From: a virus
Taxonomy: Duplodnaviria; Caudoviricetes
DNA length: 64,000 bases
Virus record (IMG/VR): IMGVR_UViG_3300042154_002208
Direction: 5' to 3' (one strand)
A program made the position numbers and the translations under genes. This document shows positions 30,999-31,717 of this stretch, one piece after another (the stretch's first letter is position 1; every line of letters starts with the position of its first letter). The notes under the pieces are model-generated. The model was not told the origin of the DNA and did not search any database. It saw only the letters and a list, made by a program, of their open reading frames with translations.

Positions 30999-31086
30999 AT
31001 TGAAACATTCTAAACTGGACGCAGGTTCTAAGAAGTAAGACCTTGATTGATCCCCAAGAAGGTATGGAGAGCAAGAGTGTTTCAAT
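30999..31086 (+). ncRNA. 88-nt stem-closed element A
   Basis: 13-bp terminal stem ATTGAAACATTCT/AGAGTGTTTCAAT between two tRNAs; paralog at 31632. Confidence 0.55.
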
Positions 31087-31088
31087 AT

Positions 31089-31164
31089 GGGGGTGTAGCT
31101 CAGTTGGGAGAGCGGTTGCTTTGCAAGCAATAGGTCGCAGGTTCGATCCCTGTCTCCTCCACCA
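31089..31164 (+). tRNA. tRNA-Ala(TGC)
   Basis: G3:U70 identity pair, loop TTTGCAA, CCA end. Confidence 0.93.
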
Positions 31165-31170
31165 ATTTAA

Positions 31171-31244
31171 CTCGGTGTAGTTTAATGGTAGAATTCGTGG
31201 TTTGGGACCATGAGACGGAAGTTCGATTCTTCCTACCGAGACCA
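31171..31244 (+). tRNA. tRNA-Pro(TGG)
   Basis: Acceptor CTCGGTG/TACCGAG, loop TTTGGGA, CCA end. Confidence 0.92.
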
Positions 31245-31252
31245 TAGTTTTT

Positions 31253-31328
31253 TGGCCTATAGCTCAGTTGGTAGAGCGTTTGACTGTTAATCAAAATGTC
31301 CCTGGTTCGAGCCCAGGTTGGCCAGCCA
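31253..31328 (+). tRNA. tRNA-Asn(GTT)
   Basis: Anticodon arm TTTGA-CTGTTAA-TCAAA, G73, CCA end. Confidence 0.93.
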
Positions 31329-31333
31329 AATTT

Positions 31334-31418
31334 GGAGATGCCGCCGTAATGGTATGGCAGGAGACTGTAAATCTTCCGACTCACGTCACAATTGGTTCGA
31401 TCCCAATCATCTCCACCA
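31334..31418 (+). tRNA. tRNA-Tyr(GTA)
   Basis: Acceptor GGAGATG/CATCTCC, loop CTGTAAA, long V arm, CCA end. Confidence 0.92.
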
Positions 31419-31444
31419 TTTTTAATTTTTAACAAGGAGCAGTT

Positions 31445-31585
31445 ATGAAACATAAGATGATCGTCAAGCAACGTAACCGTTTCGTTGTTTTGGCTTTACA
31501 ACGCAAAGCGGGAGTCCATCGTAAAAGCAACAAAGCTTTGCGAAGGCAACATAATGCGAGTATAGCTCAGTTGGTAGAGCAGTAG
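31445..31585 (+). CDS. 46-aa basic peptide overlapping the tRNA-Lys 5' half
   Basis: SD AAGGAG; MKHKMIVKQRNRFVVLALQRKAGVHRKSNKALRR. Confidence 0.5.
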   Translation: MKHKMIVKQRNRFVVLALQRKAGVHRKSNKALRRQHNASIAQLVEQ

Positions 31586-31631
31586 ACTTTTAATCTATTG
31601 GTCGTGGGTTCGAATCCCCCTACTCGTACCA
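31556..31631 (+). tRNA. tRNA-Lys(TTT)
   Basis: Acceptor GCGAGTA/TACTCGT, loop CTTTTAA, CCA end. Confidence 0.93.
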
Positions 31632-31717
31632 TATAAAAACATTCTTGTCAGCACTGTGGGAAGCGCAGATAGACAATACTAGAACAAGGTTCGAATCCAA
31701 ACAAGAGTGTTTCTATA
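31632..31717 (+). ncRNA. 86-nt stem-closed element B containing a T-loop motif
   Basis: Stem TATAAAAACATTCTTG/CAAGAGTGTTTCTATA; internal GGTTCGAATCC. Confidence 0.55.

Follow-up and report, generated by a model that had tools for sequence, protein, structure and literature searches.

That phage transfer RNA (tRNA) clusters contain small RNAs has been known since T4 and T5; to our knowledge no role has been found for these RNAs. The T4 species 1 and species 2 RNAs are small stable RNAs of the tRNA region, about 100-170 nucleotides (nt) long and of unknown function, and we know of no kink-turn, palindromic loop or link to transfer-messenger RNA (tmRNA) in the small RNAs of either phage. In T5, RNAIII, RNAIV, RNAI and rna2 (GenBank AY692264) likewise are ~100-170 nt long and are encoded on the tRNA strand, between tRNA genes; a terminal stem of ~8-12 base pairs (bp) closes the folds of both RNAIII and RNAIV, and rna2 has a T-arm beside its closing stem. 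Here, two spacers of a tRNA array were analysed in a 64,000-nt stretch of a Caudoviricetes genome (IMG/VR record IMGVR_UViG_3300042154_002208), the whole of which is referred to as the window. The two elements, el1 (30995-31090) and el2 (31629-31720), are like the T5 RNAs in placement, but they differ from the T5 and T4 small RNAs in stalk consensus and share no sequence with them.

RNase III stalks, i.e. the leader-trailer helices around 16S and 23S rRNA and the early sites of phage T7, resemble the present arrangement in that sequences flanking a structured RNA form a long helix in a polycistronic precursor, the classical substrate being a double-stranded stem of about two helical turns. The stalks of el1 and el2 differ in being only 17-19 bp long and in beginning exactly at a tRNA CCA. 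Plant mitochondrial t-elements, which are tRNA-like without being tRNAs, help to form transcript 5′ and 3′ ends (PMC1920247). Element el2 is likewise tRNA-like and located at such a boundary, but it has an acceptor-like stem of 12-19 bp, lacks an anticodon arm and has a T stem of 2-3 bp only, and its core is far more strictly conserved than a cleavage signal needs.

Circularly permuted two-piece tmRNA genes (RF04321, RF01850, RF01849; in part described in PMC11915505, with phage examples in PMC9004378) contain an intervening segment, which is treated in that part of the 2025 tmRNA database paper (PMC11915505) simply as sequence absent from the mature RNA, without mention there of a conserved folded RNA. 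Relatives of el1 and el2 constitute this very segment, preceded by the acceptor piece with its ...ACCA and followed by G1 of the coding piece, with the stalk continuing the acceptor stem, whereas the window copies sit between ordinary tRNAs. No family of Rfam 15 matched el1 or el2: with the tRNA region searched at E up to 1, and the entire window at gathering scores, only tRNAs were returned.

Two conserved folded RNAs in one type of stalk

Elements el1 and el2 are conserved, strand-specific folded RNAs of two separate phage-only families. A sequence-only reading of the window had described them as paralogous RNAs starting right after a tRNA CCA and closed by 13-16 bp stems with the same core. 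The start, the long closing stems and the common core were all confirmed, and the stems proved longer than claimed, since the CCA is included in them. In el1, a 14-bp stem (30998-31011 x 31074-31087) extends to 17 bp with CCA/UGG (30995-31011 x 31074-31090), and in el2, 4 + 12 bp around one A.C mismatch (31632-31647 x 31702-31717) extend to 19 positions (31629-31647 x 31702-31720). The AAACAUUCU/AGAGUGUUU core common to both stems includes a U-G wobble that pairs on the tRNA strand only, the other strand having a mismatch there. The exact 12-mer CAAGAGTGTTTC occurred in the 64 kb only at the two 3′ arms. Folding z-scores were -3.47 for el1 and -3.11 for el2, with 0/200 and 1/200 shuffles, respectively, folding as well.

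The interiors differ, as had been stated: the el1 covariance model (R1) scored 95.1 bits on the + strand of el1, against 18.8 on the - strand and 28 on el2, the latter via the stem alone, and the motif noticed in one of the interiors, GGTTCGAATCC, is located at 31688-31698 in el2. Paralogy thus applies to the stem and not to the interiors, which are two unrelated cargo families in one stalk type. Similarly, the proposed repeated family stands as far as genuine conserved tRNA-strand RNAs of a repeated design are concerned, and falls as a single paralogous family.

The stalk CCAUAU-NN-AAACA...UGUUU-NN-AUAUGG, set on a tRNA CCA, was present in both window elements, and in the fetched loci its consensus also enclosed about 20 or more further interiors, 74-236 nt long, some of them with a full T-arm beside the 3′ arm. 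Among 47 distinct cassettes, CCA was found 5′ of the stalk in 36 and UGG 3′ of it in 39. In tmRNA slots the outer stalk differed (CCA-AAAG...CUUUU-GAU-GGG) while the cargo-proximal bases were unchanged, and slot and cargo are therefore separable. Covariation of the base after UGG with the tRNA discriminator was also considered and dropped, the base being by eye mostly a conserved U. Elsewhere in the window, a hairpin at 49127-49154 (+) within a 2092-codon open reading frame (ORF) has arms, AAGAAUGUU / AACACUCUU, that recall the stalk core in swapped order, probably by chance.

The search for the two motifs in other phages, which the sequence-only reading had proposed, returned 102 copies of el1 and 53 of el2, and both are conserved. 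Copies of el1 were collected by exact-word scans of IMG/VR with a 17-mer search pattern and by a later extra scan with a 3′ pattern; a first motif scan with AAACATTCT...AGAGTGTTT had given mostly chance matches, which were filtered by eye. The 102 copies were distributed one each over 102 viral contigs. For 58 copies at least one tRNA was located within 1.5 kb, and these tRNAs were without exception on the el1 strand, none being on the opposite one. When 185,579 prokaryote genomes were scanned, only one of 30 matches proved to be a genuine el1 copy, and its 1.8-kb contig came from a metagenome-assembled genome bin; with this single true match el1 looks phage-restricted.

Based on an alignment (A3) of 47 distinct sequences, el1 folds into a three-way junction of the stalk P1, the junction AAA, hairpin P2, and an arm composed of P3, an internal motif and P4. 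In the alignment 98.7% of the cells were paired, in comparison to 83% after shuffling and 38-52% when the partners were slid by 1-3 columns, and compensatory changes on both sides were found in 18 of the 31 pairs. The 3′-pattern scan added P2 variants in which the hairpin is kept, i.e. CUA/UAG in locus L273 (compensatory) and a U-G pair in L275.

The internal motif of el1 reads, on its sequence pattern, as a textbook kink-turn. The pattern GG-N-UC / NNN / GA ... UGGA / G-N-N-N was present in 47/47 aligned sequences, with a Watson-Crick stem ending in a C-G closing pair and a 3-nt bulge of 14 different sequences, and the C stem covaried. An invariant G-A lies opposite an invariant G-A, giving tandem G.A and A.G pairs, followed by A opposite G (3b.3n = A.G). 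This corresponds to the standard kink-turn consensus (PMC5061560), the pattern being shared with the described motif (PMC5061560, PMC4382518) and known in el1 from sequence. Kink-turns with G at 3n fold in metal ions without protein (PMC4382518), and the G at 3n in el1 thus predicts protein-free folding in metal ions.

The P4 loop contained a self-complementary tetranucleotide at a constant offset in 15/15 distinct loops, of five kinds (GAUC, AGCU, CAUG, GGCC, AAUU), and in eight of the 15 the palindrome reached six bases (UGAUCA, UAGCUA, UGGCCA, UCAUGA). None of 100000 loop shuffles reproduced 15/15 palindromes. Because swapping one palindrome for another needs paired substitutions, selection has acted on self-complementarity, and pairing between two el1 copies is probably the simplest reading of the loop. 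Loop-loop self-association is the mode of the HIV-1 dimerisation hairpin. Phage phi29 pRNA also self-associates by loop-loop pairing (PMC4201828; self-associating RNAs are reviewed in PMC7357161), and in comparison the central 4-6 nt of the el1 loop are self-complementary via compensatory changes. Both the kink-turn and the loop-loop dimer, as in phi29 pRNA and the HIV-1 hairpin, are structural motifs, not families.

For el2, two word scans gave 53 copies, of which 30 were unique, with variants coming from the second pattern scan only; when the loci fetched by then were searched by blastn with the el2 core, all copies found were identical. The 52-nt core, UCAGCACUGUGGGAAGCGCAGAU-N-GACAA-N′-ACUAGAACAAGGUUCGAAUCCAAA, was almost invariant throughout this set, whereas the closing stem had more than 10 different sequences, with changes on both sides in 10 of 11 pairs. 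The pair N:N′ (31671:31677) occurred as A-U, C-G or G-C, and a T-stem pair was flipped in locus L321. In layout el2 is similar to a tRNA without an anticodon arm, with a long acceptor-like stem, a D-loop-like hairpin with a GG loop, a 2-bp mini-hairpin, and a canonical T-loop, UUCGAAU, on a stem of 2-3 bp. Its sites were of four types: with the window-type stalk after tRNA-Lys or tRNA-Gly, with other stems after other tRNA-type CCA ends, alone, or as the tmRNA intervening segment.

Of the tRNA-sized decoys proposed by the sequence-only reading, el2 does look tRNA-derived. Neither ARAGORN nor cmscan at E up to 1 called a tRNA (RF00005) on el1 or el2. The proposed likeness to Y RNA did not hold: no match to the YrlA (RF02553) or tRNA model covers either element, and the sole weak YrlA match (22.7 bits, E = 0.35) lies outside both, over the tRNA genes at 31186-31306. 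Among 20 window ORFs scanned against Pfam there was no gene for a Ro-like protein, Ro being the binding partner of YrlA RNA, and no RNase III, L7Ae-type, SmpB or RNA ligase gene.

Neither element is followed by a U run in the window, i.e. the feature of an intrinsic terminator is missing there. In two el2 relatives, L251 7026-7117 (-) and L255 13662-13753 (-), the outer stalk is lost and the 3′ arm runs into 7-9 U, so that the closing stem with its U run looks like an intrinsic terminator.

Copies within permuted tmRNA genes

In locus L018, el1 is located inside a permuted two-piece tmRNA gene identified with Rfam, with the acceptor piece (...CGGAUCCACCA) on one side and the coding piece (GGGUCCG) on the other; the el1 stalk continues the acceptor stem through the ACCA end. 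Among 54 unique el1 copies with flanks, 21 were the tmRNA intervening segment and 26 were directly after a tRNA (Leu, Gln, Lys, Thr, Arg or Glu). Scores on RF04321 (gathering score 47) were 75-155 bits in each of the 15 loci with a tmRNA context that were tested, and most of these also passed the beta-type model RF01850. At least seven el2 relatives likewise were intervening segments; among them, the top-scoring model was beta for the genes of L305 and L319 and alpha for those of L318, L326, L331 and L332. A search for beta-type tmRNA genes in 151 bacterial genomes of one class gave nothing above the cut-off.

According to the part of PMC11915505 that describes these genes, tRNA-processing enzymes cut one transcript, and the intervening segment is absent from the mature two-piece tmRNA; therefore el1 must be excised in the phages that carry it there. 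This excision is the best available, though indirect, pointer to a release of the window copy during tRNA maturation. Since both cargoes fill the segment of permuted tmRNA genes whose removal from the mature RNA is part of its definition (PMC11915505), the release by tRNA processing that had been proposed from the sequence is very plausible.

The tmRNA gene of L018 (11340-11619, -) has an unusual T-arm, in which CCGGU-UAUCGUAG-ACCGG replaces the canonical T-loop, and its tag reading frame appears to end ...EVQLA. Two other el1 loci had distinctive neighbours. In L005, a 147-nt cargo in the same stalk (6037-6183) lies directly 5′ of el1 and an HNH endonuclease gene (6335-6747) directly 3′ of it, and in L195 a GOLLD RNA (RF02032, 217.8 bits) at 6032-6498 (-), with a tRNA match within its span, is in the same tRNA array as an el1 copy.

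Array setting of the two spacers

ARAGORN called 25 tRNAs in the window, of which 24 form the phage tRNA array at 30040-38521 (+). Element el1 is the gap between tRNA-Leu(UAG), with its 3′ end at 30997, and tRNA-Ala (31089-31164), which starts within the last two bases of the stalk; el2 is the gap between tRNA-Lys, ending at 31631, and tRNA-His, which starts at 31728 (3′ ends by ARAGORN and Rfam). With these flanks, the window copies are not at the intervening-segment position of a permuted tmRNA, and no tmRNA was found in the window by ARAGORN, or by Rfam over the whole window at gathering scores. When 30900-31800 was compared by blastn with catalogued phages, tRNA genes were the only matches and no close relative was found; a protein search with one window ORF likewise gave distant matches only (32-39% identity).

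Features of el1, el2 and the tRNA genes at their 5′ sides, with positions in the window
Feature	Position	Strand	Details
tRNA-Leu(UAG)	30921..30997	+	CCA 30995-30997 is the base of the el1 stalk; ARAGORN; Rfam tRNA 60.8 bits
el1 stalk P1, 5′ arm including tRNA CCA	30995..31011	+	10/17 P1 pairs with compensatory changes in the family
el1 junction AAA and hairpin P2 (CUG-GACG-CAG)	31012..31024	+	nearly invariant (alignment A3)
el1 kink-turn, bulged strand	31025..31036	+	C stem GUUC 31025-28, bulge UAA 31029-31, then G-A-A-G-U
el1 distal hairpin P4	31040..31063	+	9-nt loop 31046-31054 with palindrome GAUC 31049-31052; every P4 pair covaries
el1 kink-turn, non-bulged strand	31064..31072	+	AUGGA, then C stem GAGC; UGGA invariant in 47 sequences; C-stem pairs covary
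el1 stalk, 3′ arm ending in UGG	31074..31090	+	overlaps the first two bases of tRNA-Ala (31089-31164)
tRNA-Lys(UUU)	31556..31631	+	CCA 31629-31631 is the base of the el2 stalk; ARAGORN, Rfam
el2 stalk, 5′ arm including CCA	31629..31647	+	10/11 closing pairs with compensatory changes in the family
el2 cargo core, tRNA-like	31648..31701	+	hairpin CUGUG-GGAAG-CGCAG 31654-31668; mini-hairpin UA-GACAA-UA 31670-31678; T-loop-like GG-UUCGAAU-CC 31688-31698
el2 stalk, 3′ arm ending in UGG	31702..31720	+	followed by tRNA-His at 31728

A near-consensus promoter of the TTGACA...TATAAT type, ATGCTTGACA...17 nt...TATAAT, is present three times in the tRNA array (30318-30357, 32125-32164 and 34238-34277, all +), and therefore the array would be transcribed as several units. 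A 46-codon ORF at 31445-31585 (+) with a strong ribosome-binding site (AAGGAG) and no Pfam match begins just 3′ of tRNA-Tyr and has its stop codon inside tRNA-Lys; small ORFs overlapping the next tRNA are likewise present in the older T5 annotation (AY587007). Protein genes amid the tRNAs code for GroES (Cpn10; 32343-32612, +), a DnaJ-domain protein (33144-33743, -), a MazG-like pyrophosphatase (34290-34586, +), an RNase H-like protein (38531-39001, +) and a 73-aa homologue of the RNA polymerase omega/Rpb6 subunit (39001-39222, +).

Release of the cargoes and alternative explanations

The explanation that we favour, with moderate confidence, is that el1 and el2 are stalk-closed cargo RNAs, released in tRNA-type processing and each with a function of its own, on a factor recognising tRNA-like RNAs. 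In one polycistronic tRNA transcript, the trailer of the upstream tRNA, from the CCA onwards, would pair with the leader of the tRNA that follows, and the resulting stalk would keep the cargo as a separate folding unit and may itself serve as a site for double-strand cleavage of the RNase III type. The adjoining tRNA or tmRNA ends would then be finished by RNase P and 3′ trimming, and the cargo would remain as a stable RNA closed by its stem, its amount tied to tRNA or tmRNA expression. The target of both elements would be a factor, from the host or the phage, by which tRNA-like RNAs are recognised. With regard to the forms in which they might do so, the indications are weaker: el1 may be a three-way junction with a kink-turn of the protein-free class, which probably pairs with a second copy via its self-complementary loop, and el2 could be a tRNA-derived mimic of the tRNA elbow, combining the D-loop-like GG loop and the T-loop in the absence of an anticodon arm.

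Possible, though on balance unlikely, is a more specific form of the favoured explanation, in which el1 would be a self-assembling natural RNA and a by-product of tRNA or tmRNA maturation. The kink would bend the arm, the loop would join two copies into a closed dimer, and the dimer would act in trans on a factor handling tRNA-like RNAs, e.g. in trans-translation or tRNA end processing, with el2 as a parallel tRNA-elbow mimic.

Several observations weigh against the favoured explanation. The stalks of 17-19 bp are below the approximately two helical turns of classical RNase III substrates, and since some el2 relatives are isolated from tRNAs altogether, release linked to a tRNA is not obligatory in the el2 family. 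There is little or no covariation support for P2 of el1 (three bp), which was fixed by the search word, or for H1 (five bp) and the T-stem of el2, and portions of the invariant cores were set by the search patterns (a 17-mer in el1; an 18-mer over H1 and a 20-mer over the T-loop in el2). For the dimerisation of el1, the loop palindromes are the whole basis, with a palindrome acting at the DNA level as a less likely alternative.

If only the stalk mattered, the elements would be processing or insulating spacers and their interiors tolerated filler. In favour of such spacers, one stalk is common to many unrelated interiors, the CCA and UGG of tRNA ends are part of the stalk, and tmRNA intervening segments are discarded according to the part of PMC11915505 on these genes. 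We nevertheless regard filler as unlikely, as conservation is higher in the cargo than in the stalk: the core of el2 is near-invariant in 30 unique sequences that have more than 10 stem sequences, the el1 junction, kink-turn and loop palindrome are retained across tRNA and tmRNA slots, and el2 relatives are also found away from tRNAs. Near-invariant cargo cores do not fit mere processing signals either, which had been the other suggestion of the sequence-only reading.

A cis-acting device for CCA-end maturation would be either a self-cleaving ribozyme of a new kind or a switch that senses a ligand or protein, and would determine when the 3′ end of the upstream tRNA or tmRNA is freed. Rfam 15 gave no ribozyme or riboswitch model match, a stalk of 14-19 bp is too stable for a switching helix, and two unrelated cargoes use the same slot, so that maturation cannot depend on one particular cargo. 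On these grounds such a device appears rather improbable, despite the placement always directly 3′ of a CCA end, junction nucleotides about as strictly conserved as in a ribozyme or riboswitch, and a kink-turn of the protein-free class, as in riboswitch and ribosomal kink-turns (PMC4382518, PMC4316175).

Inverted repeats of 17-19 bp and the occurrence of the same cargo in many different slots, together with homing endonuclease genes near the element in relatives (L005), might suggest small mobile DNA of the miniature inverted-repeat transposable element type, or homing footprints, with the stalk as terminal inverted repeats. This origin is very improbable, given that el1 is present once per contig (102/102) with nearby tRNAs all on its strand (58 copies), that the arms change by compensatory and wobble substitutions preserving RNA pairing on the tRNA strand only, that the internal helices covary, and that no target-site duplication was seen. 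That el2 is a decaying pseudo-tRNA without function, as its tRNA size, its T-loop GGUUCGAAUCC with the D-loop-like GG loop and the failure of ARAGORN and the Rfam tRNA model might imply, is hardly credible for a 52-nt core near-unchanged in 53 copies and in unrelated slots, including alpha- and beta-type tmRNAs, which is the opposite of decay, and with a compensated pair occurring as A-U, C-G and G-C.

With el1 and el2, two small RNAs of tRNA clusters are now defined as large families open to comparative tests, and the discarded spacer of two-piece tmRNA genes is a second, unexpected home for both. The kink-turn and the co-varying self-complementary loop of el1 offer hypotheses that can be taken directly to the bench. 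Both are candidate families for Rfam and similar RNA catalogues, and with them the tRNA arrays and tmRNA genes of phages would be better annotated. The spacer that follows a CCA end of tRNA type then looks like a slot of general use, from which phages express small RNAs.

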